Shown in pieces: positions 18,237 through 63,600 of a stretch of 64,000 nt of DNA (position 1 is the stretch's first letter; each line of letters starts with the position of its first letter). A program made the position numbers and the translations under genes. Under the pieces are notes generated by a model. That model did not search any database, was not told the origin of the DNA, and saw only the letters and a program-made list of their open reading frames with translations. This DNA is from Yuukianura sp. NJ FZ-2021 (Eukaryota): the NCBI GenBank assembly GCA_046563655.1, contig CM102289.1, positions 5,518,001 through 5,582,000 on the forward strand, read 5' to 3'.

Positions 18237-18300
18237 TGAAACAGCCTCTACTGCAGTGGGTCGAAATTATTTTCCAGTTCTAATTTTTTTTCGACCTTAT

Positions 18301-18314
18301 TGACTCAATTTATA
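18301..18314 (-). promoter_or_regulatory. TATAAA followed by TGAGTCA, ~65-80 bp upstream of the GR start codon; conserved in GR copies 2, 3 (20825-20838) and 4 (23184-23197)
   Basis: The minus strand reads TATAAA(T/A)TGAGTCA at the same position upstream of three paralogs whose surrounding sequence has diverged. Confidence 0.5.
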
Positions 18315-30536: not shown

Positions 30537-30550
30537 TTTATTTTTTTATT
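30537..30550 (-). terminator. Two AATAAA poly(A) signals 60-70 nt downstream of the NRPS stop codon
   Basis: TTTATT on the + strand at 30537-30542 and 30545-30550. Pipe has its own + strand AATAAA at 30371-30376. The region is very AT-rich, so chance matches are possible. Confidence 0.45.
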
Positions 30551-30608: not shown

Positions 30609-33600
30609 TTATTCGTTAGATAAATCCATCGCCTTAGCCACAATTGAGCACACACGTAAAAGCGGTTCTTTTGATTTAATCCAGCTCACGTGATCTGGAA
30701 TTCCGTACAAACGAATGCATTTCTCAGGAACAAATAGTTCCAAATTGTTAAACTTTCTTTCTCGCGCAAAGTGTTGCGACACTTCTTCATCCTCAAGCCC
30801 CGCCTCCCCTTTCAACAACACAACCTTCGTATCTTTCAAAATTTCCTCGGAAAGTGGTTTCGGATAATACTCGGCTACAATTTCTTCTCCCTCTCTCACT
30901 GGAATTCCAATCTCCCGCAACGTATCTCCCAAAGCAAAAAATGAATCAACGATTACCACACTCGACACTTTGTCTCCACCCACCAAAAGTTGACGCGCAA
31001 TTTCAAATGCTATCATTCCCCCTGAACTCCATCCGAACAAGTCGTACGGGCCTTCCGGTTGAACTCGTTTCATGTGCACAATGTGCAATTTCGCTGCAAA
31101 TTCTAGTGTAAGTCCCTTGATATTTTGGGGATTGAATTTGGTCAAATGGGAGTAATAATTGTTAAACAAAACCAAATCACGTGACCCACCCAATTGTGGA
31201 AGTAGCGTTCCCAAATAGTTTTCAGCCCCACCGTTTCCTGGCGGGAACAAAAATGCTATTGGTTTTTGAATTTCATTTTTTCCCGGGCAAAACACATAAG
31301 GCACAAAATCTGGAAAATCACTCATTGTGCTGGAAGGTTTTGCTTGAATTTGTGCTAATTTCAAAATGACAGTCTCCAGCGAATGTACCAATTCAGCTAA
31401 TAGCCCATCTTCCGCGCCAAGTAATTTGATTTGAATTGCATCTGTATTGTCCAATACCAAAATTTCAAAACCGCTGTTCAAATCTGTCTGATTCTTCCCG
31501 CCAAATTCTACAACACTGTTTGTAAACCGCACGACGACATTCGGTCGACGGACATTTGCAAAGCTGAAACCAATTCCATCATCCGGTACATAACGCAAAC
31601 TTTCTTTTGTAAATACCAAAGCATCCTCAACTGAATCGTGACATGACGATAGCAGAACCGGGTAACTCACTTCAAAATTTCCCGCAGTATTTTCAAATCT
31701 CTTCGACCGTTTGCCTTCGCTTACCAAAACTACGTTCTGAGTGCATCCAAATTTTTTAGTTAAAACGCACGACATCGCTGTAAGAAAAATGTCTCTCATT
31801 TGAACGCCATTTAAAAACGACACGCCCTTCCTCAAAGCAGTACTCAAAGATGACGATAGTACAATACTTTCAACGCCGTTGGACTGCACATGGGCAAATG
31901 TTGGTTCTGAGCAATTTTGCATAATTTTCGCCCAATAGGAGCCGTTGCGTTGTGCAGCAGCTTCTCTTAGCAAAATCCATGTTCGATAATCTTCTTTTGG
32001 AGTAGTTGAACCACGACCTTGGTCAAGGAAATGGAAGAATTCTTTCAATAAAATATTTGCGGTAACTTCATCTGCAAGAAATGAAGCCAGGGTAAATCGA
32101 AAAGTGGATTCATTTTGTCCCAAACTGCAAGTCAATGTCAATGACCTCTTCGGTTCGATGGAATTACTCTCTGGCAATGGATGCGGCAATACCACAAGTG
32201 GCACTCCGCGCATGCTCTCATCGTAAACTAAATCTGAACCTTCCAGATAAAAACCAAGCACGTCAAAAGTCTGTTCTAGATAATGAACCGCGGCTTCTAC
32301 ACTCCTGAGGTCAATCGGAATCGGTCTGGTGCTGGTGAGGTGAATGACGTTTCTCTTCGAGGTCAACTCCAGAGGAGCCGAAACACGAGTAAAGGCAGCA
32401 ATTGATGCTGGACTCACATCCAATCCCGCTTGTTCTTTCAGGACAAACGCACAGAGGCGACTGATCGTTTTATGTTCAAATACATCCTTCACGGAAATAA
32501 TTATGCCCGTTCGCTCTTTAATTCTGCTGACTAAATTGATTGTCTTGATACTGTTCCCGCCCAATTCAAAAAAGTTTGTGTTTAGCCCAATACTGTCCAC
32601 TGGCAAATCCAAAACTTGAGCCCAAATCTCAACTAGCCCTAATTCAAACTCATTCTTCGGTCTGGAAGTATCGAGGTCACTGACCTCAAATTTTGGTTCT
32701 GGAAGAGCCTTCCTGTCCACCTTTCCATTGGGCCTTAACGGAATCTTCTCTAATTTGATCAGGCACGCTGGAACCATGAAATCTGGCAATTGAGCACTGA
32801 GCATGCGTAGTATCTCTTTAGCTGAAAATCCTGACCCTGCGACGCAGTAACCTACAAGCGTGTCTCCCTTTACGTCTACAACACAATCCGACACTGAAGG
32901 ATGTTTGGCCAATGCCGTTTCTACCTCAGACAATTCTACCCGGAAACCACGAATGTTTGCTTGCAAATCAGCGCGTCCCAAAAATTCCAACTGCCCCGCC
33001 AAAGTCCACCGTGCCAAATCGCCTGTCCTATAAAGACGTTCTCTCCGACCACTTGAAAATAGGACTTCAATAAAGGCTTTCTTCGTTCCCGCTTCGTTGT
33101 TCAAGTACCCCCTAGCCAAACCTACTCCACCAATGAACAGTTCCCCAACGGCCAGAGGTGGAAGAATAGCCAAGTTTCTGTCCATGACGTAACAGGATAC
33201 ACTGGGAATCGGAGATCCAATTTCAGATACGCTGTCAGCATCCACCCATTTTCCGGTGGCTGCAACTGAAATTTCAGTGGGACCGTAAGAGTTGTACAGT
33301 TTGACTCGAGAGAGCCAATAGCGAGCTGCTTCTACATTACAAGCTTCCCCACCGAAACTGATTCCTTGGAGCGCCGGGTAATTCAATTTTGGTAATGTTG
33401 GAATTACTGCTGGAGGGAGATAAACAAATTGAATTTTGTTTTGGTCAATGTAAGTTCCGAGGGCATTCGGATTGAGTCGGGTATTTTCGGAAAGAAGATG
33501 AGCTACACCTCCTTTACTCAGCGGACCAAATGCTTCGAACAGAAATGAGTCAAAGGCGTATGAGCAAAATACAGAGCTGACCACAGGGGGGTCATTGACC

Positions 33601-36600
33601 TTCGTAGCTAAGAATGAATCGGCATAAGCAGAAACGGAGTTGACAATTCCGCAATGTTGCAATAAAACGCCTTTAGGTACGCCAGTCGTTCCTGAAGTGT
33701 AGATACAGTAAGCTAAGTCAGTATCTGTCATGTCAGGAGGCGTCCAGTGTTGGTTGGGAAGTTGACCTATGACATCTTCCAAGCAAATCAGTTGACATCC
33801 TTGCAGAACTGAACTGGACTCTTGTCTTTTGTTTGTCACGACAACTTTAGTCTTTGTGTCCTTGATGATGTATGTGATTCGCTCAACTGGAAACGTAGGA
33901 TCGACAGGAACAAACGCTGCGCCAGCCTTCATTATACCCAGCATTCCTACAAACACTTTTTCGTCTCGATCTGCCACCAAAACAACCAAATCTCCTTTCA
34001 AAATTCCACTAGAAGTCAATCTCTGGGCAAGAACGTTTGCACGCATGTCCAATTCCCTGTAACTCAAAACCTCATTTTCATACACAACTGCCGCTGCATC
34101 GGGACACTTCTGAACAGAATGTTCAACAAGCCCATGCAGTGTTGTTGGTGCAGAGGGCATGCGTGGACGCGATGGAGTCATACCCCACTCCTCTGTGATT
34201 TTTCTGTAAACCGGAGTAGTTACCAATTCCAAACTACGCATTTCCTTGGAGCCATTTTCGGCCATTTGTTCCAAAATTTTGACAAAAGTTGAAGCCATGT
34301 TGGTCATGGCCACTTCAGTGTAAGAAATAGAATCGTAAAGAAAACGGAGTTCAATGACTTCCTGCCTCTCCCATGCAAAAACGACTAAAGGATATTCCTG
34401 TTTTTCAATTCCCTTGTCACCTAGCGGAATAAAATTGAACTTTCCGTCACTATTTTGACCTAATTGCCGAGTAGGGAAATTTTCAAAAACAAAGATCGAG
34501 TCAAATGGCGGTCCAGTTTTGTTGGAAACAGCAGACAAATGAACATTTGACCTAGCATTGATTTCAGCCACTTCTTTCTGTAGCGTTCGAATAGCGTCCA
34601 TGAGCGTCCCACTCTCATCACGACAATGTTCAACAATGGCAGGTAAAGTGTTGATGTAAAGGCCGACTGATTTGTCAATTCCAGGAATCGACAGACTTCT
34701 GCCGGAAACAACCGTACCTACTACAGTGACATCCGAAGTACCAAAAACATTTAAAATTTTGTGCCAAGCGTAAAGTAAAATGGAGCTGAGTGTAACTTCA
34801 GCTTTTCTGGACATTTTTCGGAGCTTGTCTGACAGTTCAGCTTTTAGTGTCAGAGGAAGTTCAACAGAATCATACAAAGTGGAACCTACTTTTCGTTGAA
34901 GTTGGTTAAGATTAGACGTGTTTAGACCTACAAGGTCGTTGACCTCACCAATTCGACCAATCTGGTTTTTCCAGTAGGTCAAGTGCTCCTGTGCAGATTC
35001 TTGCAAGAACTTTTGTGTCCTGAGGTACCCAAAATCGAGTTCCACTTCCGGAACGGATCCTTCGACTAAACTATTGTAAAATTTTGTTACAGTTGATAAA
35101 AGAATGGGTAGTGACCATCCGTCCATGATGACGTGGTGGTAGCTAAACAGAGCAGTGTAAGAATCCTGCGCAGTTTGGATTAAATGAACTCTAAACAATT
35201 GACCTTCGTCTAATTTGAACAATCTTTTCTTGTCACCTTCGCTGATTAGTCTAATTTCCTGTTCGTGCATGTCAGAGGTCAAATTTGAAATGTCAATGAA
35301 CGCAAAGTCAAGATCGGGTGAAGAATCGATGACCTGCAGAATTGTTTCTTCTTCCCAGGCAAAACGCAAGCGCAGTGCCGGAAATGCCTTCATGGCTACA
35401 ACCCACGCTTGTTTGAAATGTGTTGGATCCAGTTCTCGCTCGTACTTCCAACCAATTTGAAAAGAGTAACCGTCAGTAGCCTCAGAACCATTCAGAAGAA
35501 AGTTGTAAATGAAACCAGTTTGAAGACTGTTGGCAACAAAAATTGCATCGACTGAATGTTGACTACGTAGACGCTCCAAGTATGAAGTAGAGCAGTACTG
35601 CGTAGGAATTTCGTAAGATTGGAGGTCAAAGGCTGATGGCTGGTCTGGAGGAGGTGGCGGAAGGTCAATTTGGTCTGGTTCTTCTAGATGCTCTGCTAAA
35701 GCCTTGATTGTTTTAAAATCAAAAATATCTTTGGGTGTAATTGAGACATTCAAAATTTGACGGCACAATTCTGCTAACTGAATACTCACAATACTATCTC
35801 CACCTAATTGAAAGAAACTGTCGGTTATACCAAATTCTGATTGGTCCAGATTTAAAACTTTACTCCAAATTTCATGCAAGTCTTCTTCGAGATCCGTTCG
35901 AGGCAAAACTATTTCAGACTCAGTTTGAAATTGCGGTTCTGGAAGTGCTTTCAGATCTACTTTTCCGGTGACAGCCAATGGGAATGCAGAAAGATGGACA
36001 AGGGCAGATGGAACCATGTAGTGCGGCAATTTAGCACTCAAATACTCAAGAATCTCAGAATGTGCAAGTGGAAGTACAGAAGTGTAGTAAACTACGATCC
36101 GTTTTGAACCACTAATTTCTCTCACTTGCGCAATACAAGCAGAAATCTGCGGATAGGAAGCCAAACTAGACTCAATTTCACCCAATTCAATTCGAAAACC
36201 ACGAACTTTGACCTGAGTATCAACACGACCAACAAACTCCAAGTTCCCATCCAACGTCCATCGAACAAGATCACCAGTACGATACAAATTCATTGGATCT
36301 TCCCCTGCAAAAGAGTGAGTGATGAAAGCCTTTTGCATTTCGTCTTCACGATTCAAATAACCCCGCCCAACACCTTTCCCGCCAACCAACAATTCACCAA
36401 TGGCCAAAGGAGGCAGCAGAACCAAATCCTCATTCACAACAAAACAAGTGACATTGTGAAGTGGTTTGCCAATGTCAGACACACGTTCATCTTCAACCCA
36501 CTTTCCGGTGGCTGCAATACTTGTTTCGGTGGGGCCATAAGAATTGTACAAACGGACGCGAGTAGTCCAGTATTTGGCTACACCCACAGGAATTCCATCA

Positions 36601-39600
36601 CCACCAAAAGAAATTGTTCTGAGAGAAGGAATGTCAATTTGCGGCAGATTTGAAAGGAGAGCAGGAGTGAGGTAGAAATTTGTGATGGATTCTTTTCGGA
36701 AGTATTCGGAGAGGAGATGAGTGTCTTTTCGGGTAGTTTCGGAAAGGAGATGAATGCAACCACCACGAGTCCAAGGACTCCAAACTTCCATCAGAAAAGC
36801 ATCAAATGCGTATGAGCAAAAAACAGTGGATCGAATGTCGCTGTCTCTGTTTCCAAAAATGTCATGTGCATAAGAGTAGATTGTGTTGACTGCGCCTGCG
36901 TGATGGACGAGCACTCCCTTGGGAACTCCTGTTGTTCCTGACGTGTAAATGCAATAAGCAAGCGAATTGGAAGTCCCTCTGCCCAGCCTTTCTTTGTTTT
37001 CCAAACTTATTTTGACTTGTGTTTCTTCCGAATCGATGGAAATTACCTTAACATTTTCCGAATCAAAAGCCGAATGTTTCCTGTGTTTGTCATTGGTCAA
37101 AACAACCTCAACTCCTGAATCCTGCAAGATGAATTTGATTCTTTCCGCGGGAAGATTCAAATCAATTGGAACGTAGGCAAAACCTCCCTTCAAAACCCCG
37201 ATCATTCCAATGAGCAAATCTTCCGTTCTTTCCAAGAATAGTCCAACTAGTGACTCTGATTTGACACCGAATTTAGCCAAGTAATTTCCTAACTGATTTC
37301 CCCGTTCATCGATTTCTCTAAAGGTCAATGATCCCTCACTAGTCACTAATGCAGTCCTATCCGGGTATTTCGTAGCGGCCTCTTCCAGAATTTCGTGAAG
37401 CGTTTCTGGAGCTCCTAATTCTTTCCATTCCGTTTCCCACCCTGCACGCATGATTTCAAACTTTTCGTCCTTAAGCATTTCAAGCCTACTACAATTTCTG
37501 AGTGGTTCTGTAACAATTTGTTCTAGAATTTTCATAAAAGTGGCTCCTAGATTTTCAATGGCTTCTACTCCAAAGAGGTCATTTGAGTAATGAAGGTCAA
37601 TTTGCAGAGTGTTTCCACGTTGATGGACGAGAACAACCAATGGATAGTCGAATTTGTCCACAACGCCCTCTAGTGTTGGACGTAACTTAATTCCTGTCGT
37701 TTCACTAACGTTGGTTGGATAATTCATAAACGTGAACAAGGAATCGAAGAGTCTTTCTCCCTCTTTTTGCAAACTGGACAAACTCACATTCGTTTTTGAA
37801 CTCATTTCGGTAAAGTGATTTTGTAGCTTCTTGATTCCATCAACAAGCGAACAAGTTTTATATTCCGAATGGTCTACAATCATCAGCAAAGTGTTGACGA
37901 ACAAACCGACTGCCGTTTCCATATTGTTGATTTCCGGAAGATTCCGGCCGTTAACGACCGTACCGCAGACGGTAACAGAACTTGTACCGAAAGTTTTTAA
38001 AATTTTGTGCCAAGTAAATTGCAAAATGGCGTTCATCGTGAGTCCTTCTCGTCTGCTCAGTTGATTTAACCCTGCCGCCAAATTCCCTTCGACAAATAAA
38101 CTCTGTACTTTGGAATCCATGACACGACGAACTTGACTAATCTGTGTCACTCTCTGAGCTAAATTTGACGGCACGAGACCAAGCAACTCATTCCGTTCTG
38201 AAATCCTTTCTAATTCTCCTTCCCAAAAGTCCTTGTCAGCCTCGAATTTACTCTGAAGGAACTTCTGTGCATGAACGTAGGTTAAATCAGGTTGTTGACC
38301 TTGAACATTTTGGCCTTTCAGAATAGCATCATAACTTTCATGAACGATAGTCAGCAGCGGAACAATTGACCAACCGTCTAAGATGGCATGATGGTAGTTG
38401 AACAAACAACGAAACAATCCTGGACCTAGACGAACCAACTGAATTCGGAATAACCCGCCTTTTTCCAAAGAAAATAATTCACGTCTGTCTTGTTGCTGAA
38501 GTTGGACAAATCGAGAAGACGGGTTCTCTAATTGGCTGAAATCGTGGAATCGAAAATCGACTGATTCATTTTTGGAAATTATTTGGATCAAGTTGTCATC
38601 CCATGAAAAGCGAAGTCTCAAAGCTGGACATTTTTTGGCAGCAACATGCCATGCTGTTTTCAGCACATGCGCATCTACTTCCATATCGTACCGCCAAATC
38701 ATTTGTTCCATATACGAATCATCGCCATCTCCCTGTTCAGCTACACCCTGCTGATTCAGTGCATGGTAAATGAAACCCCGTTGTAAACTGTTCGCCAAGA
38801 AAATTCCATCGATTTCTCCCGCGCTTTCAATTTTTCTCAAAATTTCGTCGGAAACAATTCCTCCAAAATTGTTTTCTCTGTTGTATGGATCTAAATTGGA
38901 ATTAAAATTTGAAATTGCAACTGCACTTGTCGAATCAATATTTTCGCAAATCCTACGAATCGTTTTGTACTCCATGATGTCCTTCACCGTAACAACAATG
39001 TTCAACTGCTGCCTCACTCTGCCTACAATTCTAATGCTAACAATACTGTCTCCACCTAACGAGAAAAAGTCAGTGTCAATTCCAATTTTGGCAGTAGAAA
39101 TCCTAAGAACCGAACTCCAGATTGAAACCATTTGAACATGAAGTTCCGTCTCCGGTTCAGCAGTGGCGGTACTTTCAAAATCAGGATTTGGTAGAGCTTT
39201 GCGATCAATTTTAGCCGAAACTGTTGTTGGAATTGCATCAATTTTAACAAACACAAGTGGAACCATGTACTCTGGCAGGTCTTGTCTCAGATGACCTTTG
39301 AGCACCTCTGGGTCAATGACCTCTCCAGCGACATAGTAGAAAATCAAAGTCAATTTCCCAAGGTCACCCCCAAGCGGTCTTGCATCAACCACAACTCCAG
39401 TTAGTCCAGGAAATTTACTTCCCACAACCTCAATCTCACTCAACTCAATTCTAAACCCATTGACCTTGACCTGCGTATCTCTTCTTCCGTAAAATTCCAA
39501 TTCTCCAGCTAAATTCCATCGTGCCAAATCCCCAGTTGAGTACAAACGGAGACCACTTAAAGCGTTGTCCAGAAATGCTGCTCTTGTCTGTTCCGGTTTG

Positions 39601-42600
39601 TTCAAATAGCCTCTCCCTACTCCAACTCCAGAAGCGTACAACCCTCCAGGGGCAAACGCTGGAAGTGGTCTAAGGTAATCGTCTAAAACAAAACAGCGCA
39701 TGCCTGGTAGTGCTTTTCCGATTACCCAAACTTCTGCTTTCTGAGTCAGCTCTTTCGAGGTCAAAATGATACTAGTTTCTGTTGGACCATAAAAGTTGAT
39801 AAGTTGGACTTTGGATGTCCAGTAGGCAGCGACATCTTGGCGACAACTTTCTCCGCAGTACGAAATGACCTTGAGATTTGGAAAATCCATTTTCGGCAAT
39901 GTTTGAAGCAGTGAAGGAGCAATGTACAAGTAAGTAATGAGATTCTTCTGTAGGTAATTTCCGAGTAACTCCGGATCTTTCCGAACTGGGTCAGATAGAA
40001 AGTGGATCGTTCCACCACAGAAAAGTGGTCCAAAGATTTCCACCACAGAGAGGTCAAACACAATTGCTGAGGTCACGGTAGCTCGAATCGGAACGTTAAG
40101 TTGGTACTGCTGTGCAAAAGCTCTGATGGAATTTACTACCCCGGCTTGGCCCAGCAAAACTCCCTTGGGTTTCCCAGTACTTCCAGAAGTATACAAACAG
40201 TAAGCAAGTGGATCTCGCTCACAGCGTATGTTCAAATTGTCACGTGACATGGACTTTACCCCATGTAGAACTTCCTGGGAGTCTACTAGAAGTAGAGTTG
40301 GCGGAGATTCCCAAGTACTTACAATGTCTTTCAGTTTCTGCACATGCGTAGAGTCTGTCAAGATGAGTGAAAGTTTCGAGTCTTCTAAGACATACTGTAA
40401 CCTGCCTGTCGGATAGCTCGTGTCAATCGGAAGATAAGCTCCGCCCCCTTTTAATATTCCCAGAATACCCACCACCATTGTTTCGTTCCTTTCTAAATAA
40501 AGTCCAACCAAAGGATTTTCATCTGATTTCAAATTTCCCGCCAATTGTAAATACCTCGCCAACTGATTGGTTGCTCCGTTCAACTCGGAATAAGTAAACT
40601 CTTTCTGTTCAAAAACAAGCGCCAAATCGTCCGGATGTTTTTGAACTGTCAATTCAAAACAACCAGAAATTGTAGTCGGCTCAACCGACTTCGGCAAATC
40701 ACAAATTTCAAAATTTTGGACAAATGAAATTTCCTTTACAGTTTTAGCCGAATCAAATGCAATTTGGTTCAAAATGTGCACAAAAGTTTCTTGTAAACTC
40801 AAAATTGCCTCGTCAGTGTAAATTGACCTTGAGTAGTTAACCTTGACCTTAAGTCCCTCATCTTCCCAACCCATCAGAACTATAGGATAGTCAATACTCT
40901 CATGAACACTTTCAAACTGTGCTCTGAGGTCAACCACTTTGTTACCAGATGCTGGCTTTGGATAATTTTCGTAAATAACTAAAGAGTCAAACAGTTTAAT
41001 GCCCTGAGGTTGTATTTTGGCCAAATTGATGCTTGATCTTTGACTTATTTCGGCCGTCTTTTGATGAATTGCTTTAATAGCATCTACGATTGATTGCTTA
41101 ATTGACTTTGTCTGATCTACTACTAGAGGAAGCGTGTTAATGAAAAGTCCAACTGACGATTCGATTCCAGCTACCGGCATTTCACGACCGGAAACGACTG
41201 TACCAGTGACAGTAGTCGAACAAGAGCCAAATACAAACAAAATTTGATGCCAAGCAAATTGAAGAATAGAGCTCAACGTGAGGTCATGTTGACGTGCCAA
41301 CTGATTCAAAGCAACTAAGCAATCCTTGTCCAACTGTATCTGCAGGTCAGCTCTTCCCGATTGACCGGTTTGACCCGAATGAGGTTTCAAGCCTAAAAGG
41401 TCATTGACCTGCGTCACTTGGCTCACTTCCTCTCTCCACCAATCCAAATGATCAACTCTATGCTGTTGTAAATACTTCTGCGCAGAAGTGTAGCTCGCGT
41501 CTGGCACGACCTCTAGCTTAATTCCTTCTCGTGCTGCGTTGTAGTGAGCATGAACAGCTCCAAGGACAATGGGAAGTGACCAACCGTCGAGAATCGTATG
41601 ATGAGAACTAAAAATGCAGTGAATCAAGTTTTGGTTCTCTCGGATGAAATAAATTCTAAAAAGCCCACTTTCTTTTAAATTGAACAATTCTTTACGATCT
41701 TCATTTTGAAGTTTGTGGAGAGCTGATGCTTGCTTTTCTAAGCTCAAGTGACTGTGATCGACCAATCGGAAATCGGTGTCTACCGTTTTGTCTATAATTT
41801 GAACCAGTGAATCTTCCCAGGAAAAGCGCAGACGCAAACTCGGAAATTTCTGGGCAGCGAAAACCCAAGCTGCCTTAAATTTTTGATGGTCCACATCAGT
41901 CTCGTATCTCCAAACCTGTTGCACAATGTACGCATCTTCCTCACCTTCAATTGGATTCAAAGTTCTGTAAATAAAACCTTCTTGCAAACTGTTTGCCAAG
42001 AACACGCCCTCTACCTCTCCTCTGCTCTGAATCTCATTCAAAATTTCTAAAGTCACGACGTTATCAACATCAGACGGAGTTAAAAACGTTCTGTTAACTG
42101 AATCACAGTGATCGGCAATGTCAACCAAACATTTCTCCAAGGTTGACCCCACTAGCTCCACCGGCAGTCGGCGTGAACCAATCACAAAGCTCAGAAATCC
42201 GTTCATCACTGAAGCAACAATTGACAAATCGCCAACAGAATTTCCATCTTCCGGGAATGTTAAATGACCCAAAAACTTAGCCAATTTCCACTCACTTGCC
42301 GGATCAGAATCTGCCGACGTTTGGTTAGATTTTCCTACATACTGACCTAAGTAATTGAATGATGTTGATGGTAACGGCAATTGAGGATCGTTGTAACCAA
42401 AAAGCGCGCCAAATCCAATTCCTTTGTCTGGAATTGACCTGAGTGTTTCTTTGACCGACACGATTGTTTTGTCAGTAGAGGCAAACGCTTCTAACGGAAC
42501 TGGAAACATACTGGTGAACCAACCAACAGTTCTGCCTACATCTACTCGTTCATCAATTTCTTCCCTGCCGTGGCCTTCCAGAAGAACAAAATTTCTGTTT

Positions 42601-51600: not shown

Positions 51601-54600
51601 TTATTCTCTTCGCTCCTTCTTACTTTCACATCCACCACTGCTTCATCTACTCCCGGAAATCCTACCAATCGCTGCTCAATTTCCTGCAACTCAATTCGAA
51701 ATCCGCGCAATTTAACTTGTGTATCCACCCGACCAACGAATTCCAAATTGCCATCTTCTGTCCACCGAACCAAGTCACCTGAACGGTACATACTGCCAGC
51801 TCCGAACGGGTTCGGAACGAATCTTGATTCGGTAAGTTTCGGTTGATTTAAATACCCTCGGGCCACTCCGATTCCACCAATGAACAGCTCTCCAACAGCC
51901 AGAGGTGGAACTGGCCTCATAAATTGATCCAAAACATAACATTTATAGTTAGGGTGTGGCCGACCAATCAAATTGAAATCTCCCGCACAAACTCTTTTGC
52001 ACGTCGCACTCATGGTGGCTTCCGTGGGGCCATAAACATTGTACACATCGACTTCTGAACACCAAAAGTCAGAAACAAACTGACTCAGAGCTTCTCCACC
52101 GCAGATAATTCCACGCATGTGTGGCAAAAGTCCTTTCTCTCTTGGAAACGAACCGAGCATAGCCGGAGAAATGTTGCCGAACTGAATTCGGTTTTGTTGA
52201 AGATACTTGACGAGTAACGTTGGATCTTTTCTGACTTCATCACTAACGACATGGACCGTATGCCCTCTGAGAACTGGTCCAAACAATTCTAATGCAAAAA
52301 CGTCAAATTCATAAGGACTTAGAGCTGTTGTACGCAAGTGCTCTTCTGTGTCATATAGAAATCCGTATGCCAATGCACCATTTCTCCCACTTTCATGTTC
52401 GACTAAAACGCCCTTGGGCACTCCTGTGGTTCCAGAAGTGTAAATGCAGTAAGCCAAATCGTTTTGGGAAGGAGTAGGCAGGAGCTGTGAATTTTCAAAA
52501 TTTTTCAAATTTTCCAAAATCAAAATTGGTGGCAATTCTAAATCACTCAGATTCAACTTTTGCACCATTGCGATACTGGTTAAGATGACTTTTGGTTTAG
52601 CGTCCTGGACAATGTATGATACTCTGTCCATTCCTTGGTCTACACTAATCGGCAGAAAAGCGGCGCCAGATTTCAAAACTCCAAGTAATGCCACGACGCA
52701 TGAGTGACTCCTTTCAAAAAACAAACCAATCAGATCATCGGCCTCAACGTTATAAGAAAGCAGCGCCTGTGCAACTTTGCTAGCTTCAAAATTCAATTCT
52801 GCGTAAGTCAAAGTTTCGCTTTCAAAAACAATCGCAGGACGTTCAGGAAATTTTGCCACTACTCGTAAAAATTCGCTCACAAGCGTTTCTTTCCCAATAG
52901 CTCTATTCTCCGTTTCGTTCCAAATTTCAATTATTTTTTCATAATTTGTCTCATTCAAAAATTTCAATTCATTCAACGGTTTTTCCAGGATTTTCAGTGT
53001 ATTGCTAAGAATTTGTTCAAAAGTTGCCAAAATCCTGTTAATTGAATCGGTTTCAAAAATTTCTCCGGCGTAGCCTAGCAACAATCGAATTTTCTTTTCC
53101 CGTTCTCTCTCGGCAGCTAACATACTCAAAGCATAGTCCAACTTTTCCTCCGTTCCAATAAATTTGACCTTCAACTTTTCTGAGGCTTCGGTGACATTCA
53201 TGTCAGGGTAATTTTCAAACACAAAAAGCGTGTCGAATAGTCTCTCGCCTTGTTTCTGCAGTCGACCTAACCGTACATTTGCTTTAGCGTTCATTTCAAT
53301 CAAAGATGTTTGAATTGCTCTAATTTTGTCAATGACCTTCATTTGACCTTGACCTGCGTTTGACCCGTGGTCAACAACAAGTGGAAGTGTGTTAATGAAC
53401 AAACCAACGCTGCTGTCGATACCATCAATGGGCAACTCCCTTCCAGAAACCACTGTCCCTACAACTGTTATTTGTTCAGTTCCATACAAATGGAGTACTT
53501 CGTGCCATGCGTACTGCAGGAGAACACTTAAAGTCAGTTCATGTCTACGACATGCATCTTTCATGTCATCGTAAAGGTCACCGGAAATGAACAATTCTTT
53601 TTCGACACGATTTTGAATTCGACGGACATCAAAAAGTGACGTTCGCCTTCCAGGATCTGAGTTTCCAAAGAAACCAACCAATTCATTTCTCCCATTGACT
53701 TTAGTCAAAGTTTCTCTCCAGTATTGCTCATGTTCGTGTGCATGTTCCTGTAAATGCTTCTGCGCAGCTGGATATGCCAAGTCAACTTTGTCCAAAATAC
53801 TTAACCTTTGACCTCTACAAAGCTCTTCGTACGTTTGATGTAAAGCTCTCAGCAGAACAGGTCCACTCCAACCGTCTAGAATTGCATGGTGTGCAGTGAA
53901 CAGCGTCGTGAACAAATTTTCCCGCTGCTGAATCAAGTGAACTCTAAACAAAGGCGCCGAATTCAAACTAAATTCATCTTTCCTGTCTTTCTTTCTCAGT
54001 GAATCCAACTTTTCCCGCCAAATATTTGGTTCCTCTCCCGACCAATCCAAAATTCGCCAGTCAATAACCGCTTCTTTATCAATTATTTGAAACATTCCCT
54101 CATCAGATCCCCACGAAAAGCGCAAACGCATACTCGGAAAAGCTTGGACAACTTTAGTCCATGCTGACCTCAGATGACCCAGGTCAAGTTGACAGTGATA
54201 TTCCCATAAAAATTGATTAATGTAAGAATCGTCCTCGTGACCTTGATGTAAATGGTGGTAAACAAAACCTTCTTGCAGACTGTTTGCTTTGTAAACTGCC
54301 TCTACCTCTCTGTTTTCCTGCAACTTCTCCAGTTCGTTCCAGCTCATCACCCAACTGACGTCACTCAGCGATAGTCGGCTGCGATTGGCCGATTCCAAGT
54401 GAGACGCAACCGATGTAAGTTCAGAAGCAATCAAATTTCCTACCTCATCTGCGCCCATTTCCAAACAAGTTGAAACTGTAAAATGCAAAGCGCCCTCTGC
54501 CGCATAACTCAAAATTGCAACAAGATCGGCTGGAACATCCTCCCGATGCATCGTCACTCCCGCCTTGTCTCCACACATTTTCCATTCTCTGTCTTCACTG

Positions 54601-57600
54601 CTTTGACCAAAGTGGCCCAAGTGATTGAACGTGATTGGTGGAAGGGTGTCACGTGAGTAGCCCATCAGTGGTCCAAAACCTATGCCCTTGTTTGGAACTG
54701 CTCTCAAAGCGTCTTTAACTTTTCGAATAGTTTCTCCAGGATTCGAACCCACTGCCAGACAAACTGGGTACATCGACGTAAACCACCCGACTGTCTTACT
54801 CACATCTAATCCCTCAACAATTTCCTCTCTCCCGTGACCTTCCAAAGTCACATACTGATTGGTTGACCCTGGAAAAATGATTTTTAGAGCAGAAGCTACC
54901 CCTGACAAGAGGAGGTCATTGACCTCAGTGTTGTAAATGGAATGACCTGTTCTTAAAAGAGTTTGTGACTGTTCAATTGGCAAAGAAAAGTTGACCTTTG
55001 ACATAACTTTTTTCAAGGGCATTTCAATCCTGACTTTTTCATGTTCCTCAACCAAATCCTTCCAGTATTTCTGTTCCCCCAGGGGGAGCTGTTTTCCATA
55101 CTTTTCAATTGCAGTAACCCATTGCCTGTAGCTCGTTCCCTTTTCACCCAATGACTTTCCTTGGTACAAAGTTTCAAGGTCATCGACCAGTATCCTCCAA
55201 CTCACAGCGTCAACAATCAAATGATGTAAAGCGAAATGGAGTCTACTAGTGCCATCTTTGTAGCCCTTAATCAGTCCAATGTTCCACATGGGGCCACACC
55301 CATAGTCAAAGCCAGACTGCCACGAAGTAAGAATCCGCTGCAAGTTTTCCTCAAATTTTGAACTTCCCTCTTTATATTCCAAATTTGCGAGGTCAATGAC
55401 CTTTAACCTTCCAAAACCTAACCTCTCCGAAATTTGGGGAAAGTACTCTTGTTGTAAATTTTTGGAATCGAAAGTCATTCTAAGCACATCGTGATGACAC
55501 TCTAGCAGAGCAATGCTGCTGGCCAATCGTTCTACGTTCAAGGCCCCCTTGCAGTGAACTACAAAAGCTTGATTCCAGTGATGTGGCCAAGTATGCTGAG
55601 AACCAAAAAACCAGCGCTGAATCGGCAGTAGTTGGAATCTGCCAGTCAAAAGCCCCTGTTCCCCCTTGACCCCCTTCGTGAGGTCAATGACCTTGAGACA
55701 ACCAGAGTCCGCCAATCGCTTGATACATTTCTGCTCAAAGATGTCTCTCACGGTCAATTTCAAACCAAGTTCCTTCTTAGCTCTACCGACAATTTGGATG
55801 CTCAAAATAGAATCCCCACCGAGTTGAAAAAACGAACTATTAATTCCCAGGTCACTGACCCCAAGCACTTCCTTCCAAATTTTAACCAATCCCTGTTCTG
55901 CGGAATTTCTGGCGGGAATTACTTCCTCTTCGACTTGAATTTCAAAAGTAGGGCGCGGAAGCCCTTTTCGATCAACTTTCCCGCCAAGCGTCAGAGGCAG
56001 CGACTCCAAGCGGACAAAAATTGAAGGAACCATGTACGCTGGAAGACAACTCAAACAATGTTCTTGCAATTCAGTTTCATCAATTCCTCCCTCTGAAACA
56101 TAATATCCTATGAGTACTCCAGAAGTCGTATCACGCAGAATCCGTTCTACTACAATCGACGCAGCCTCACTAATCCCCTGAAATCGACAGATAACTTCCT
56201 CCACTTCGGCCAATTCTATTCGAAATCCTCTGATGTTCACCTGAAGATCACGTCTTCCAATGTACTCTACATTTCCTTCACCAATCCACCGCATCACGTC
56301 TCCCGTTCGATACAACTTTTCTCCTTTCCCGCCAAACGGAGATTGCACAAAGTTTTTTGCCGTTTCGACTGGTTTGTTCAAATACCCTCCGGCTACACCA
56401 ACTCCACCGATGTACAAAACACCCAGTGCACCCACAGGTACTGGCCGCCTAAATTCGTCCAATAGGAAGAAAGCCTCGTTCGGTAGAGGGCGTCCAATGA
56501 CATTTGCGAAATCATCTGTAATTTGATTGGCTGTGTTGACTACACTAGATTCAGTGGATCCAAACATATTGTAAAAACGTAATTTCTGGGACCAGTAACG
56601 CGTGAGTTCTGCTCCACACGGTTCTCCACTTATAGCAATGGCTTTGAGGGAAGAATAATTTTTCCTAGGAAGTGTCGCTAGTAGGGCAGGCGGGAAGTAA
56701 GCGAAATTGATCTGATGCAAGTCAATGTACTCTGATAAAAATGTGGGATCCAGTCGCTCTGTCTCTGTTAGCATGTGAACTAAACCAGCACCAGCGAGGG
56801 GAGTAACTATTTCAATAATTGAGGCATCAAAGACATAAGACGTCAAAAATGGACAATTCGGCTTCTCCGATCCGAAACACGGTGTCATAATGGAGTCTAC
56901 GACGGCAGCTACTCCTGAATGCTTCACCATTACCCCTTTGGGCTCTCCTGTAGTTCCAGAAGTGTATATAACATAAGCTAACTTATCGGCAGTATCTCGG
57001 AAATTGTCGGCTTCTTTCGGCATTGTTCGTAAATCATCGATTTCGCGCGGAGTGCCTACCGTTACAACTGTTTCACTAATTCCTTCTTCTACGCTCAAAA
57101 TTTGAATCGAAATGGACTCATTTTGACAAATTGATGTTAAATTCTGAACGTGTCGCTCGTGCGTCACTAGTACGCGTGCTCCAGTGTCTCTCAGAATGTA
57201 CCCGATTCGTCCAGAACCCGATGCCGGGTCAATCGGTACATATGCTGCTCCAAATTTCCAAGTACCCAGCATCCCGACAACCATTTCAAAACTCCGTTCC
57301 AAAAACAATGCCACAAACTGCCCCGCACCGACTTTCCTCAACCTATCAGCCAAAAGCTCCGACTTTCTCCCGAGCTGGCCATAACTCATTTCTTTCCCGC
57401 CAAAAATTAAAGCCGTTTCATTCGGCTTCGTATCAACAACTTGCTGAATCCTGTCAAAAACTGACTCCATCGGTGGTGGTGGACCTTCAGTACGGCTCCA
57501 GTCGTTTAAAATTTGGCGCGAACAAGATTCAGAAAGAAATTGGACAGAACTTGAAGGTTGGTTCCAAAAAGTCGGAATTTGAGCTAAGAGAACTTCCAAA

Positions 57601-60600
57601 GAGCCCAAAGCCCCCTGAACTGCTGGTTCAAACAGTCTATCTCCATCGTACAACAGCTTGACCTTTAGCCCAAGGTCAAGTTCATAGGCAATTAGAGCCA
57701 ATGGATAGTCGAATTGACCAAAAACGTGATCCAGAAGCAACTCCCACTTCAACTCACTCTCTACCTCTTTCTGTGGAAAATTCTCGTAAGCAAACAAAGT
57801 ATCAAACAACCTTCCCCCATCAGGAGTAAGTTGAGCCAATTGAACACAACTTCTGGAATTCATTTCAACCAAATCCAACTGAATCTGTGTAATTACCTCA
57901 GCCAAAATTCTACTTCCTTTCTGCTCATGCCCAACTACTAAAGGCAAAGTGTTGATGTACAAACCCACTGACGACTCCATTCCCGCCACTGGAATGTTCC
58001 TTCCACTCACAACAGTTCCTGTCACGGTAGTTGAAGCCAAACTGTAGAGATGGAGTACTTGATGCCAAGCCCATTGCAGGAAAGCAGTCATTGTCATTCC
58101 ATGTTTCTGTCCAAAGCGTTTCAAATTTTCGAAAATTTTGAAATCAATTGTTACGCTAATCTCCTTCGGATTCAAAACTTCCCGCATTTCGGCAATTTTC
58201 TTCTGCGGTTGTGAACTTTTTGGAAACAGAAACCCACTCAACTCCATTCTTTCACTGATGGAAGCTACAATTTGGCGCCAGTAGGTCAGATGATCTTCCC
58301 TATGAGAATGCAGATACTGCTGCGCAGAAAAGTAAGCTAGGTCTACGCACATGTCATGTGACACTCCAGAATAAATTTTGTGAACTTGATTAATCAAAAC
58401 TGCCATGCTCCAACCATCTAAAATCGAATGATGAGCACTGAACAAGCAATACATTCCTTCGAGTGTCGAAATAAAGTAAATTCTAAACAGTGGTGCTTTG
58501 TCTAATTCAAATCCTTCTGCTCTGTCTTTCTTTTCAATTTCTGAAATTGCATCTGAGTTTTCCAAATTTGAAATTTGGCGCCAATCAAGAATGCCCACTT
58601 TTGAAATTACTTGGGTCACATCCGAACTCCAGTCAAATCGAAGTCTAAGAGTGGGGTAAAGGTCAATGACCTTTGACCAGGCTTTCTTTAGTCTTTCTTC
58701 GTCTACATGCGAAGTATATTTGATCAAAAGTTGTAACAAGTAAGACTGATCAGTTTCACTGGCTCCGAGATGATGAAAAATGAAACCTTGTTGTAAACTG
58801 TTCGTTGGAAGTCGGATTTCAGGTGCTTCCAGGTCAACTCCGAGGTCAAGAAGGTCATTGACCTCGGTTTCTGTTGACTCAAACGCTAAAGCATCACTTA
58901 GAGCCTCAATCGTCTTGTATTCAAAAATATCTTTCACTTTAAGTGTAATTCCATACCGTTGTCTCAGAAGAGCCGAAATCCGAATGCTACTGATACTGTC
59001 ACCTCCAAGCTGAAAAAAATTGTCTGAAATTCCAAAATCTGTTTCTGAAATTCCTAAAACCTCGGCCCAAATTTTCAAAAATTTGACCTCTATATCATTT
59101 CGCGGGTCAATCCTTATACCTTCACCGACAAAATCTGGTTGCGGAAGAGCTTTGCGATCAATTTTGCCGCCAACCGTGAGTGGCCAAGTTGTCATGCGCA
59201 CAAGTTTCGTGGGAACCATGTACGCAGGTAGCATTTTTTCAAGGTGTTTCGTAACTTTGGCGCCATCTACCTCGTCCAATGGACTTAAATAGTAACCAAC
59301 TAAAATTTTAGTCGTGACCTCGCCCATGACCCGCTCCCTAGCCTCCACCACGGCCTCTTCAATTGCGTAGTATGAAACCATTGCATGCTCAATTTCACCT
59401 AACTCTATTCGGTAGCCCCTAATCTTCACTTGGGTGTCAGATCTTCCGACATATTCCAAATTTCCATCCAGTTGACGTCGAACTATGTCACCAGTCCTGT
59501 ACAGCCTGTCGCCATCGTGAAACGGACTGGGAATGAATTTCTGTGCAGTTATTTCTGGTTTGTTCAAATAACCTCTGGCAACTCCCAGCCCACCGACACA
59601 CAGTTCACCCAGAGCCAGAAACGGGCATTGCCTGCCATATTGGTCCAAAACGTATGCAGACACGCCCTCTAGCGGTCGACCAATCACACGCACGTCCTTG
59701 GCTTTTCGAATTCTGGCGGCTGTATCAACACAACTCAATTCCGTTGCTCCATGAAAATTCCAAAAATCAACTCTGTCTACCCAAAGAGCAGCGACTGCTT
59801 CTGGACAACTTTCTCCCGAAAAAACAATTGCTTGGAGTGAGGGGTAGTGAATTGGGGGAAGTGCTGCTAGAAATGCTGGCGGGAAGTATGCGTAAGTGAT
59901 TTGATTTTGAAGCATGTAGTCACTCACGAGCTGAGCATCATGACGCTGAATTTCACTCAACAAGTGAACTGATCCACCGTTAAAAAGAGTTCCAAAGATT
60001 TCCAAAACTGATGCATCAAACATGTAAGAAGTGAAAGCTAGTTTTCTAATGGGAATTCCCGGAACAAAAATGTCAGAATACGACAAAAGCGTGTTAACCA
60101 CGCCCCTATGTTCAACTAACACGCCTTTCGGCTTTCCGGTTGTTCCGGAAGTGTAGATGCAGTATGCAAGTGAAGTATTACTTTGAACCAAATTCAAATC
60201 AGAATCATTTTGGCGCCTCAGCTTTTCACAAATTTCCTCCACAGTTAGTAGTTCTTGTGGTGCTTTTTGGCTTAAGAGTTTTTCAAGTCTAGACACATGA
60301 CTCTGATTGGTTATAATCAGTGTCGTAGCAGTATCGGATAAAATGTAGTCCAGTCTTTCGTTAGGTGAATTTGTGTCAATCGGAACATAGGCTCCACCGG
60401 CCTTTAGAACTCCAATCATGCACAAGATCATAAACTCATCTCGCTCCAGAAATAGACCAATCAGTGGATTTTCTTGGCCTGGAACAGCTGATTGGACAAT
60501 CCGAGCAATCTGATTGGTCACTTTGTTGAGCATAGAGTACGTATAAGATTTGGAACCAAAGACAAGAGCCTCTGACTCTGGATTTTGTTTAGCTTGTCTC

Positions 60601-63600
60601 TCAATGAAATCATGAATGTTTTCAGTAGGAGTAGAAAATTTGGCAGGAAAATTTGAAAAATCGGCATTATTTTCTGCCAGGATCAAATCAGATGACAGAA
60701 CAGTCGGCGTCTGCGCCAAGGCTTCCACAACTCGTTGAAAAACACCAAGAACGTTGTTGATTGGTCCTTCCTCAAACAGCAAAGAATCATAGCTGAATTT
60801 GACACGAAGTGACGATGAAAGTTCCATAACGGACAGCAAAAGTGGATAGTTGACCTTCTCTACCACATCGATCAGGCGCATGCGCAGTTCCTCGTTTTTC
60901 TCAAACCCAAGCATGTCTGGGTAATTTTGGTAAACAAAAATCGTATCGAAAATTCTCCCGCCAGAAAAGAAATTTGAAATGTCTGCAAGTCGAGCTGTAG
61001 AATGAGCCTCAGCTTCAACAACTTTTTCCTGCACTTTTCTTACAGAATCAACCAATGGGAGAGGATTAGCATGCTCAACAATAATTGGCAAAGTATTGAT
61101 ATAAAGACCAACTGATTCGTCGATTCCACCAATCGGAAGAGACCTACCAGACACCACTACACCTACCACGGTTGTCGTTGTTGTACCAAAAATTTGTAAC
61201 ACTTTATGTAAAGCATATTGCAACATGGCACTCATAGTCACGCCATGTTCCTTTCCCGCCATTTGAAGTTGCTCTAAAAGTTTCCCGGTAAATTCAAATT
61301 CAACTTCCGCAAATTCCTCAACTTTGTTCACCTCATTCAAAGAAATTGCTTTTGACCGATTTGTAAAAAATCCTGGAAGTTCATTTCGCTCTTCAACTGT
61401 ACTAAACTCTGCCTTCCAGAATTCAAGATCTCCAAGTTGCCTCTCCTGAGTTAACTTCTGGGAATAAAAGTAAGTCGAATCTTGACCCAAGGTCAACTGC
61501 TGCCTGCCTACCAGTTGCGAATAAACTTTGTGCAAATTCGTCAACAGTACAGGAATACTCCAACCATCTAAGATGGCATGGTGAGAAGTAAAAACTGCAC
61601 GAAATCTATCCTCAGCCAATTCAAACATCGTAACGCGAAAGAGCGGGCTTTTATTCAATTCAAATCCGGCAGCACGATCAGCTACTTGGAATTTTTTGAA
61701 ATCTTTTTCCATTTCTGCGGAGGTCAAATGTCGCCAATCCAACTGACACCAGTCAAGGTCCGCCCGACTGTCAATGATCTGCACCAGTTCTTCCCAGCCA
61801 AGCCGCAGGCGCAGAGTGGGATACTTCTCGACACAAAGTTCCCAGGCTCTGCGCATGTGCTTGAGGTCAATTGCAACTCCGTATTCCCAAATGTACTGCA
61901 CCAAGTATGCGTCATCTCCTTGTTCTTGCCTCATCCAATGAGAAATGAATCCCTGCTGAAGACTATTGGCGCTAAAAACGGCTTCTACTTCCCTCTTTTC
62001 CTGAATCCTATCCAAATACTCTCCTGTAACCACGTAACCTACATCACTCGGGGTCAAATAAGTTCTGTCTGTTGACCTCAAAAGGTCAATGACCTCTTCA
62101 AGTGCCTTTTTCATGTAAATTTCAAACTCTACGCTACTTTTCACTCTAAATCCCATCCGATCTCCAAAAACTCCACCAACTACAGAAAGTACCGGATCAG
62201 TTGATTCATTTGCAGGATGAATAGTTAATCCTGGAGAATCTTCTAAGATTGACCAATCGTCGTTCGACTCTTTGCTCCTCCCACTCATTACACCCAAGTA
62301 GTTGAACAATATTGGCGGGAGAGGAACAGACTTGTCGTAGCCAATCAAATGACCGTATCCGAAGCCATGCGATGGTATGGCCCTCAGCGATTCTTTTGTA
62401 ATTTTCAAAAGTTGAGCCAAGTTTTGTGTTCCAGCGATCTCCAATTTCACCGGAAACTTGGTTGTAAACCATCCAACAGTTCTGGAGTGGTCAACCGCCC
62501 CTATGTCTTCTCTACCATGCCCTTCAAGTGTCACAAAAAATTCGGTGGAAGGAAACGCCCGTGACAATGCCAGTCCAAGAGCAGTTAGCAGAACATCGTT
62601 CATTTCCGTATGATATACTCTGTGGGCATCAGACAACAAAAATGTCGTTGCAGCCTCGTCTAACGTAAAAGTAGCTTCGATTGCCGGTTTAGTGCCAAAT
62701 TCAATTTTAGAGTTCATTGACCCCTGGGTCAACTGCTTCCAGTATGTCAGTTCTTCCGGATGGTCATTGGCATAACTCGAGCATGCGTCGACCCATTGTC
62801 TGTAACTTGCTGTTTTTGGACCTAGACTCTGACCATGGTAAGCCGATTGCAGATCTTCCAGAATAATTCTCCAGCTAACTGCGTCTACAACCAAATGATG
62901 AGCAGCGAGGAACAATCTGGCTCTTCCAGAATCATATCCATGAATGTAGCCTACAGTAAAGACACGCCCTTTTTCAAGGTCAAAAGAATCCTGCCAAGAT
63001 GTTAAGATTTTGCCCAACTCTGTGTCATTCTTCACTTTTTTGATATCAAGTACACGCAGCATGACCAATCTCGCCTCATTGTACGTCTGACTCTGTTGAC
63101 CTTGGAAGCTGGACCCCAGTATATCATGATGAGCCAAAACAGCGTGCAGTGCAGTAACTAATTTTTGTTTTTCCAGCGCTGGAACGTCAACAAGAAAAGC
63201 CTGATTCCAGTGCCCGGGAATTTCGAATTCTTTGGACCAAAACCAAGATTGAATTGGCAGTAGCGGAAAAGTGCCTTTGAGAATTCCAGTTTCACCAGAG
63301 AATTTGATTGGTTCAAAAGAATTAACATGGCAGAAGACATTGTCCGTTAGAGCCTGAATCGTTCTAAAGTCAAAAATATTTTTCACAGTTACGGAGAGCT
63401 GAAGTTGTTGGCGCATGCGTCCTGCTGCTTGGATACAAAGAATGCTGTCTCCACCCAAATAGAAGAAACTGTCTGTGATACCAACCGATTCCACTGGAAT
63501 TTTGAGCAACCCTGACCAAATTTCAGCAATGTCCAGCTCTGTTTGATTTCTCGGAGCCACTCGGACTCTTCCTTTCGTCACCAACTGAGATTCGGGATTC

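Follow-up and report, generated by a model that had tools for sequence, protein, structure and literature searches.

Why should the coding sequence of a nonribosomal peptide synthetase (NRPS) of bacterial type be crowded with copies of a palindrome that reads like a hormone response element? The question is raised by a stretch of 64,000 nucleotides from Yuukianura sp. NJ FZ-2021 (GenBank assembly GCA_046563655.1, contig CM102289.1, positions 5,518,001 to 5,582,000 of the forward strand), here called the window, the right half of which consists of one single NRPS open reading frame (ORF) on the minus strand (30609-63998). The palindrome, AGGTCA-N-TGACCT, is an inverted repeat of two half-sites with a spacer of one base (IR1) and corresponds to the idealised high-affinity EcR/USP (PAL1) element; the ecdysone response element (EcRE) of hsp27 is an example of the IR1/PAL1 type, and arthropods have both EcR and USP. 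The motif excess in the NRPS frame is real, highly non-random and DNA-level. As an explanation we tentatively favour, with slightly less than even confidence, that an array of candidate nuclear-receptor response elements has been selected within the NRPS exon.

Palindromes and half-sites in the NRPS frame

Eight perfect copies of AGGTCANTGACCT are present, all in the NRPS ORF and at exactly the coordinates that the initial annotation, made from the sequence alone, had assigned to them, while 100 dinucleotide shuffles gave an average of 0.00. That annotation had seen no perfect palindrome in the first 30 kb, and in the 64-kb window we found none beyond the eight copies of the NRPS. They lie in an A-T linker (32674-32686, peptide EVSDL), within a C domain (41398-41410, QVNDL), on the conserved E-domain motif TEVNDLLL (54913-54925), in a T-E linker, where the palindrome overlaps an extended half-site TCAAGGTCA (55681-55696, KVIDL), in a T-C linker (58852-58864, EVNDL) and at an E-C boundary (62083-62095, EVIDL). 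The other two belong to composites, the three-half-site element AGGTCAATGACCTTTAACCT at 55390-55409 and AGGTCAATGACCTTTGACCA at 58660-58679, in both of which the perfect IR1 overlaps a direct repeat with a spacer of one base (DR1) carrying one mismatch. The extra half-sites that had been noticed next to 58852 are also there, as two further TGACCT not more than 35 bases away.

If a purine is tolerated at the first position of the half-site, and a pyrimidine at the last position of its complement, the pattern RGGTCANTGACCY is found in 11 copies against 0.01 expected. The variant GGGTCATTGACCT at 33589-33601 is of this class, together with the sites at 39310-39322 and 55849-55861, so the GGGTCA/TGACCC copies of the initial annotation were all recovered. 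Allowing one mismatch, 16 copies are counted against 0.12 expected, all within 32135-62095, the sites matching the consensus RG(G/T)TCA-N-TGA(C/A)CY as an inverted repeat with a one-base spacer; here the copies already reported at 34933 (34933-34945), 42646 and 50090 were found again, and those at 32135 and 50384 are additional. The 11 core palindromes share, without exception, the codon phase xAG GTC ANT GAC CTx and encode peptides of the form (E/K/Q/G)V(N/I/S)D(L/P).

The excess was evaluated against two null models. The first consists of 5000 synonymous-codon shuffles of the ORF, in which protein and codon usage are kept; the second, of 1000 shuffles, also keeps the exact dinucleotide counts and therefore absorbs part of the signal under test. 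The eight perfect IR1 copies compare with 0.083 expected (maximum 3) under the first model and with 0.50 (maximum 4) under the second. For the half-sites AGGTCA and TGACCT taken together, 110 are seen against 22.2 expected (maximum 41) and 39.1 (standard deviation 5.1), respectively. When all hexamers were ranked using 300 synonymous shuffles, AGGTCA came out as the most over-represented (62 against 10.3, z 17) and TGACCT as the fourth (48 against 11.5). It is the half-site in general, and not the palindrome alone, that is enriched. The other 30.3 kb or so of the window contains 13 half-sites, about 12 being expected from a rough estimate on base composition.

Several features indicate at which level the signal is written. 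AGGTCA is seen 9, 34 and 19 times in codon phases 0, 1 and 2 (1.4, 4.5 and 4.8 expected) and TGACCT 13 and 35 times in phases 1 and 2 (2.3 and 9.3 expected), i.e. the half-site is in excess in all the codon phases that the genetic code permits. In motif orientation, a purine occupies position -1 in 46 of the 62 sense and 42 of the 48 antisense half-sites, and an A follows at +1 in 39 and 28 of them, respectively; the extended form R-AGGTCA-A is common to both orientations despite their differing coding contexts. Flanks of this kind, equal on the two strands in different coding contexts, lend the signal the character of recognition in double-stranded DNA. The codons themselves are unusual: tripeptides of the type [KEQ]-V-Axx use xAG in 42 of 79 cases, and 34 of those 42 continue with GTC, a codon that accounts for 19% of valine usage overall, while D-L dipeptides are written GAC-CTN in 41 of 96 cases, with a T preceding 35 of the 41. 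This codon context shows positive choice, not avoidance. A general palindrome-forming mutational process was considered and rejected: inverted repeats of the form 6-N-6 number 21 against 10.9 expected, 8 of the 21 are of the AGGTCA class, and once these are removed no excess is left (13 against 10.9).

To obtain a bacterial baseline, 77 bacterial NRPS loci were fetched by alignment of the eight A domains of this gene, and the 45 whose longest plus-strand ORF measured at least 6 kb (482,025 bases) were analysed, the 32 with shorter ORFs being dropped. Half-sites in these ORFs number 208 against 192.9 expected, a ratio of 1.08, the highest ratio for a single ORF being 2.3; palindromes, whether perfect or core, are absent from all of them. 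The comparison is sharper if one considers capacity, that is, the positions where the hexamer could be written with synonymous codons and the protein left as it is. The NRPS of the window realises 110 of 296 such positions (37%), the 45 bacterial ORFs 208 of 3081 (6.8%) and 11 neighbouring ORFs of the window 4 of 46 (8.7%), three of these four forming a triplet at 28367. The host comparison for motif density thus consists of about 3000 neighbouring codons (2989). The density seen here, which the initial annotation had proposed to compare with codon-shuffled and microbial controls, is reproduced in neither.

The protein sequence itself has apparently been shifted toward palindrome-encoding peptides. 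Hexamer capacity is 26.6 per 1000 codons, compared with 19.2 in the bacterial ORFs, and the pentapeptide [EKQ]V[NIST]DL, counted 10 times here, would be found 0.64 times in the same length at the bacterial rate (47 in 823,325 residues of 120 bacterial homologues), an enrichment of about 16-fold. Eight of these ten pentapeptides are coded as a perfect palindrome and the remaining two are one base off. Of the 11 positions that could encode an IR1 in any phase, 8 do so, a number well above what half-sites realised independently at 37% each would yield. The native E-domain motif T[EQ][VI]NDLL accounts for two of the ten pentapeptides; since bacterial E domains already carry QV or EV in 95 of 292 instances of this position, codon choice alone was needed at those two sites.

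The initial annotation had also placed 54913 and 42646 on a conserved E-domain motif, as comparison of the E domains bears out, and the motifs in general at mostly non-homologous positions. The latter holds too, as the 90 half-sites that fall within the alignments of the A, C, E and T domains are spread over 75 different positions. Their density per 1000 codons is 15 in linkers, 15 in E, 12 in C, 4.9 in A and 1.7 in T domains, the pattern to be expected if sites were to build up wherever they are tolerated by the protein. Recent module duplication was rejected as the source of the sites, since only one pair of 1.4 kb at 94% identity exists; the three half-sites of this pair gave no power. The idea of a second, DNA-level code written into a foreign gene, put forward with the initial annotation, is in this sense upheld: the excess beats both nulls, extends to all allowed frames and to both orientations with the same flanks, has no counterpart in the 45 bacterial NRPS genes or in neighbouring ORFs, and is accompanied by a shift of the protein to motif-compatible peptides.

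Site layouts and candidate readers

The arrangement of the half-sites was scanned for direct, inverted and everted repeats with spacings of 0-8 bases and at most one mismatch over the two half-sites. Three layouts stand out, IR1 (16 against 0.95 expected), DR1 (9 against 0.14) and the direct repeat without spacer, DR0 (6 against 0.66); the remaining 24 layouts have at most 4 copies each. Perfect DR1 sites (AGGTCA A AGGTCA on the sense strand, which is the minus strand of the window) are located at 45689-45701 and 46230-46242 and account for the direct repeats that had been noticed near 45690 and 46230, and perfect DR0 sites (AGGTCAAGGTCA on the sense strand) at 39461-39472 and 53344-53355. The extended monomer half-site TCAAGGTCA is present 13 times in the ORF: on the sense strand 10 copies, starting at 38296 (38296-38304), 39461, 39866, 40824, 47588, 49802, 53344, 54238, 55688 and 63875, compare with 0.55 expected, and on the antisense strand 3 copies (50797, 55174 and 62974) with 0.49.

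Among the 18 single-base variants of AGGTCA, only GGGTCA (2.1x) and ATGTCA (1.76x) are clearly raised, with z above 3; a weak increase is seen for TGGTCA (1.36x) and AGTTCA (1.26x), and none of the others exceeds about 1.2x. The strongest variant, GGGTCA, fits an RGGTCA half-site. The words therefore behave as one half-site family, with R tolerated at position 1 and fixed dimer spacings, ATGTCA being the exception in the core. Half-sites also cluster, 29 gaps being of 30 bases or less against 10.3 for random placement, and a histogram shows them spread along the whole gene.

The favoured layouts, IR1, DR1 and DR0, and the monomer TCAAGGTCA are consistent with the repertoire of nuclear receptors. 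Known readers of DR1 are USP/RXR, HNF4 and COUP-TF/Svp, and those of DR0 and TCAAGGTCA are GCNF/HR4 and the FTZ-F1, HR39, ERR and SF-1 class. We therefore propose a model with the following steps. Selection would have reshaped the acquired NRPS frame, mostly by synonymous changes and at some sites by changes of amino acid, into an array of nuclear-receptor elements composed of RAGGTCA half-sites as IR1, DR1, DR0 and TCA-extended monomer, with E2F-like sites as well. Host nuclear receptors of the AGGTCA class may dock on the gene body, candidate readers being EcR/USP on IR1, USP, HNF4 or Svp on DR1, and FTZ-F1, HR39, ERR or HR4 on TCAAGGTCA and DR0. In this way the intronless exon of 33 kb could work as an enhancer of its own gene that responds to hormone or stage, or as a platform that opens the chromatin, and a gene acquired with neither introns nor host regulatory DNA would come under regulated expression. 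That EcR/USP and coupling to the moult are specifically involved is plausible, the moulting hormone being the obvious candidate signal, as its cascade includes sites of both the IR1 and the FTZ-F1 type. It is possible, though we hold it more doubtful, that the rewritten coding sequence of the megasynthetase acts as a multi-receptor hormone array, with peptide output gated by the ecdysone/moult cascade, or with hormone-triggered local amplification.

If the model is true, an acquired gene that lacks host promoter architecture and introns would have gained regulation through a grammar written into its codons, which would represent a new route by which foreign genes without promoter or introns are wired into host endocrine control, and a probable antimicrobial or defensive peptide pathway of an arthropod would be tied to the hormonal cycle. 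The pressure would have been strong, about a third of the permissive positions carrying the motif and the protein being measurably bent. Constraint by transcription factors on coding sequence is a contested matter, and the bacterial homologues provide here a motif-free baseline. Even without nuclear-receptor readers the signal needs explaining, as it is the strongest hexamer bias of the gene, is strand-symmetric and has defined dimer spacings.

A number of observations weigh against the receptor-array model. Natural EcREs tolerate AGTTCA, which is raised here only 1.26-fold, while ATGTCA, with its 1.76-fold excess, is no classical variant. There is a strand bias, with TCAAGGTCA in 10 sense and 3 antisense copies and DR1 on the sense strand in 8 of 9 cases. 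More than 100 sites are far beyond what an enhancer normally needs, so that a function other than that of a classical enhancer may operate. Another word family, (T)TGGCGGGAA(A), is enriched in the NRPS ORF; we take it, together with the word GGCGGGAA, to resemble the E2F site (TTTSGCGC / GGCGGGAA). Since this E2F-like motif is co-enriched and mostly on the sense strand, the signal is not purely a nuclear-receptor code: GGCGGGAA, often within TTGGCGGGAAA, occurs 15 times in the ORF (e.g. at 57394-57401 on the minus strand), with 11 sense copies against 0.96 expected and 4 antisense against 0.44, and GCGGGA is found 29 times against 5.2 expected, in all three phases (12, 8 and 9) and with differing peptides (AG, GG, RE). 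In the 45 bacterial ORFs GCGGGA shows no excess (134 against 143.6). Finally, the words CTGCGCAG, CGCATGCG, CCAATCA/TGATTGG and TTGTCCA were rejected as DNA-level signals, being largely in one frame and on recurring peptides (SAQ, LRMR, ANQ and LIG); that CTGCGCAG, CGCATGCG and CCAATCA lie on conserved peptides shows that the shuffle null can also be exceeded through codons that homologous positions have in common. Examples of the TTGGCGGGAAA word, which is mostly on the sense strand, are at 57394-57401, 56326-56333 and 55978-55985.

With respect to known EcREs of the IR1/PAL1 type, the NRPS copies are identical to the idealised palindrome, have A or T as the central base in 9 of 11 cases and carry R before the half-site. 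However, the elements known so far are imperfect, come singly or in small numbers and are situated in promoters, introns or flanks, whereas the coding exon of this foreign gene contains 8 perfect and 8 near-perfect candidate sites, surrounded by roughly 100 additional half-sites. FXR/RXR reportedly uses the identical 13-mer, AGGTCAATGACCT, as an IR1 element; this bile-acid receptor system of vertebrates would not be expected here, and the match indicates no more than that the IR1 layout is general among nuclear-receptor heterodimers. The extended monomer TCAAGGTCA and the DR1 and DR0 classes are likewise known site types, but are here enriched within coding sequence. Duons, or exonic enhancers, offer a parallel in that an overlapping DNA-binding motif constrains codon choice and, apparently, amino-acid choice; they are scattered single sites, though, while here one motif family occupies 37% of the permitted positions across 33 kb. 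Our literature searches returned nothing joining ecdysone response elements with nonribosomal peptides, and those on horizontal transfer in arthropods and coding sequence no mention of AGGTCA elements. Hormone-response motifs and exonic factor sites are each already known, and what appears to be new is their extreme density inside the coding sequence of an acquired megasynthetase.

Alternative explanations

The explanation that best survives beside the receptor array, although we consider it rather unlikely, also supposes selected DNA elements, but read by another DNA-binding protein or by the chromatin or replication machinery, and with a general role that is not coupled to hormones: a foreign exon of 33 kb would be kept open, insulated, replicated or amplified. 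It would account for the 110 half-sites, far above ordinary enhancer needs, for their distribution along the entire gene rather than in one module, and for the co-enrichment in three frames of the E2F-like motif (GCGGGA). Against it stand the favoured layouts, as IR1, DR1, DR0 and TCAAGGTCA are exactly those of the nuclear-receptor family and such a grammar is not known to us from any other family of proteins. Moreover, the E2F-like words are not near the half-sites: a positional linkage between the two was looked for and rejected, the median distance being 225 against 152 at random.

An improbable alternative traces the excess to a neutral process or to a general tendency of the host genome or lineage, and not to selection on this gene; examples would be a preference for certain codon contexts or k-mers in coding DNA and sequence-biased mutation or conversion. 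The dinucleotide-preserving null does absorb part of the signal, the expected half-sites rising from 22 to 39, and unrelated, eukaryote-looking metagenome contigs carry repeats around the palindrome and GGTCAA-like words. A search of metagenomes with a DNA pattern of two palindromes returned 26 loci, made of tandem or dispersed repeats, and none of the 26 encodes an NRPS relative. From the repeat families around the palindrome it follows that the word can be abundant for other reasons. The neighbouring ORFs, however, realise only 4 of their 46 positions, three of them in the 28367 triplet, the rest of the window holds half-sites at about the chance number, and the palindrome excess vanishes without the AGGTCA class. 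Mutation bias, in addition, would give neither the IR1, DR1 and DR0 spacings nor 8 realised IR1 positions out of 11. As to the metagenome contigs themselves, AT-rich and non-coding-looking ones (L078, L079, L091, L081, L094, L095, L102 and L103) contain repeat families around AGGTCA(A/T)TGACCT, and GGTCAA-like words, unrelated to the NRPS, are found near those palindromes, e.g. at 670-760 of L103.

A role at the level of the mRNA seems quite improbable. It would make AGGUCA(A)/UUGACCU words that bind a protein or a small RNA, defective U1-binding words or decoy splice words, which would help an intronless transcript of 33 kb to escape cryptic splicing or premature polyadenylation, or to be exported. 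AG|GTCA does resemble a crippled splice donor, some sense bias exists (62 AGGTCA against 48 TGACCT, and the 10 to 3 ratio of TCAAGGTCA), and tuning at the RNA level is clear, since the poly(A) words AATAAA (1 against 7.4 expected) and ATTAAA (7 against 16.9) and the donor-like words GGTRAG (3 against 12.9) and GGTAAA (1 against 13.1) are depleted in sense, while antisense TTTATT is not depleted in the NRPS ORF. The depletion of these four words fits avoidance of cryptic poly(A) and donor sites. Nevertheless, the reverse complement of the half-site is enriched nearly equally and with the same flanks in motif orientation, IR1 is realised as a unit at 8 of 11 possible positions, and a loop of one base cannot form an RNA hairpin. 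Avoidance of cryptic donors as the force driving valine to GTC was also rejected, because the gain of AGGTCA (+51) dwarfs the losses of donor-like words (AGGTAA -7, AGGTTA -4) and the preceding codon is moved toward xAG (42 of 79). A further word, GTCTTG, which is not among the poly(A) or donor words, is absent from the NRPS sense strand (0 against 10.6 expected).

We give hardly any credence to a by-product of an NRPS peptide motif (xVxDL), of module descent or of chance, which would explain why the 11 palindromes share one frame and similar pentapeptides, and why two of the ten capable pentapeptides fall on the native T[EQ][VI]NDLL (QV or EV in 95 of 292 bacterial instances), but which is refuted, as far as sequence goes, by the protein-preserving shuffles (0.083), by the bacterial NRPS ORFs (0 palindromes, half-sites 1.08x), by the mostly non-homologous domain positions in modules that are 37-47% identical, and by the enrichment of the half-site in three frames.

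The synthetase gene and its genomic setting

The NRPS frame is intronless and uninterrupted over at least 11129 codons (at least 33.4 kb), its 5' end lying beyond the edge of the window. It matches the Pfam families Condensation, AMP-binding, PP-binding and Thioesterase, and its domain map reads, after a truncated first A, T-E-C-A-T-C-A-T-E-C-A-T-E-C-A-T-C-A-T-E-C-A-T-C-A-T-C-A-T, with a terminal thioesterase (TE). The catalytic motifs are intact, comprising 8 HHxxxDG, 9 carrier-domain serine motifs, 8 A3 motifs and GWSSG (GxSxG) in the TE. Repeated C-A-T modules, intact motifs and the terminal thioesterase thus identify the product as an NRPS. Among the best 120 of 3067 significant hits obtained with a query of 541 residues, the closest protein relatives are bacterial or unnamed metagenomic and at most 41% identical, and a protein-based metagenome scan found no relatives of the gene.

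The modules are mutually 37-47% identical in protein, and self-BLAST revealed one long internal duplicate only, of 1411 bases at 94% identity. The two A-domain segments concerned (35920-37329 and 43642-45051, or 26670-28079 and 18948-20357 of the coding sequence) differ by 53 synonymous and 21 non-synonymous codons and contain the same 33-base tandem duplication (36691-36753 and 44413-44475); the remaining module pairs are much more diverged. This similarity points to a recent duplication or gene conversion. Contigs of a second, related organism, from a public run that holds about a quarter of the sampled words, cover the region at about 93-95% identity. In contigs of both organisms 50302 is joined to 62505, with 12.2 kb omitted and the same 28 letters in between; the joint may represent a shorter NRPS paralogue or a structural variant.

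Past the TAA stop of the NRPS, at a distance of 59 bases, an AATAAA (30545-30550, minus strand) is likely the poly(A) signal of the gene. Together with the depleted RNA signals of the frame, it is in keeping with long residence of the gene and with its expression as a eukaryotic mRNA. The left 30 kb of the window has a low coding density. It includes four tandem intronless ORFs for 7tm_7 chemosensory (gustatory-type) receptors of 407-429 residues (14790-23115, minus strand); one of them was searched and matched two unnamed metagenome proteins, which are distant (36% identity). A GLD-2-like nucleotidyltransferase ORF is also found in this part, whose best named relatives are nearly all arthropods (46-54% identity) and include insects, crustaceans, a millipede and a spider, the top match by E-value being a trematode record. 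Bacterial nearest relatives, linkage to the 7tm_7 and GLD-2-like genes and expression signals of eukaryotic type are the features of a horizontal acquisition. The gene is accordingly an NRPS of bacterial type, integrated in a genome that most likely belongs to an arthropod.

Horizontally acquired NRPS genes are already on record from animals, namely the ACVS and other NRPS of springtails and those of Tetranychus, Holacanthella and bdelloid rotifers (PMC10531068). They are likewise multi-module NRPS of bacterial type among animal genes, and the part of that survey accessible to us mentions no embedded regulatory motif (PMC10531068). The three-module ACVS is much smaller than the present gene, which has at least 10 modules and more than 11,000 residues.

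Outside the NRPS, the only dimeric AGGTCA sites of the window belong to the triplet AGGTCA G AGGTCA A AGGTCA, i.e. two perfect DR1, on the plus strand at 28367-28386, 2.2 kb beyond the 3' end of the NRPS. The triplet stands immediately after a GTAAG-like donor (28364-28386), in the region of a plus-strand sulfotransferase-like frame, with the peptide ...NLVRDPIERVISWFYY next. An Rfam search of the window gave no match. Two arrays of 15-base units in opposite orientation, about 480 bases apart, occupy 8741-8811 (CGTACGCTTAGGGAA) and 9294-9379 (CTAAGCGTACGTTTC) and resemble the ends, in inverted orientation, of a small mobile element.

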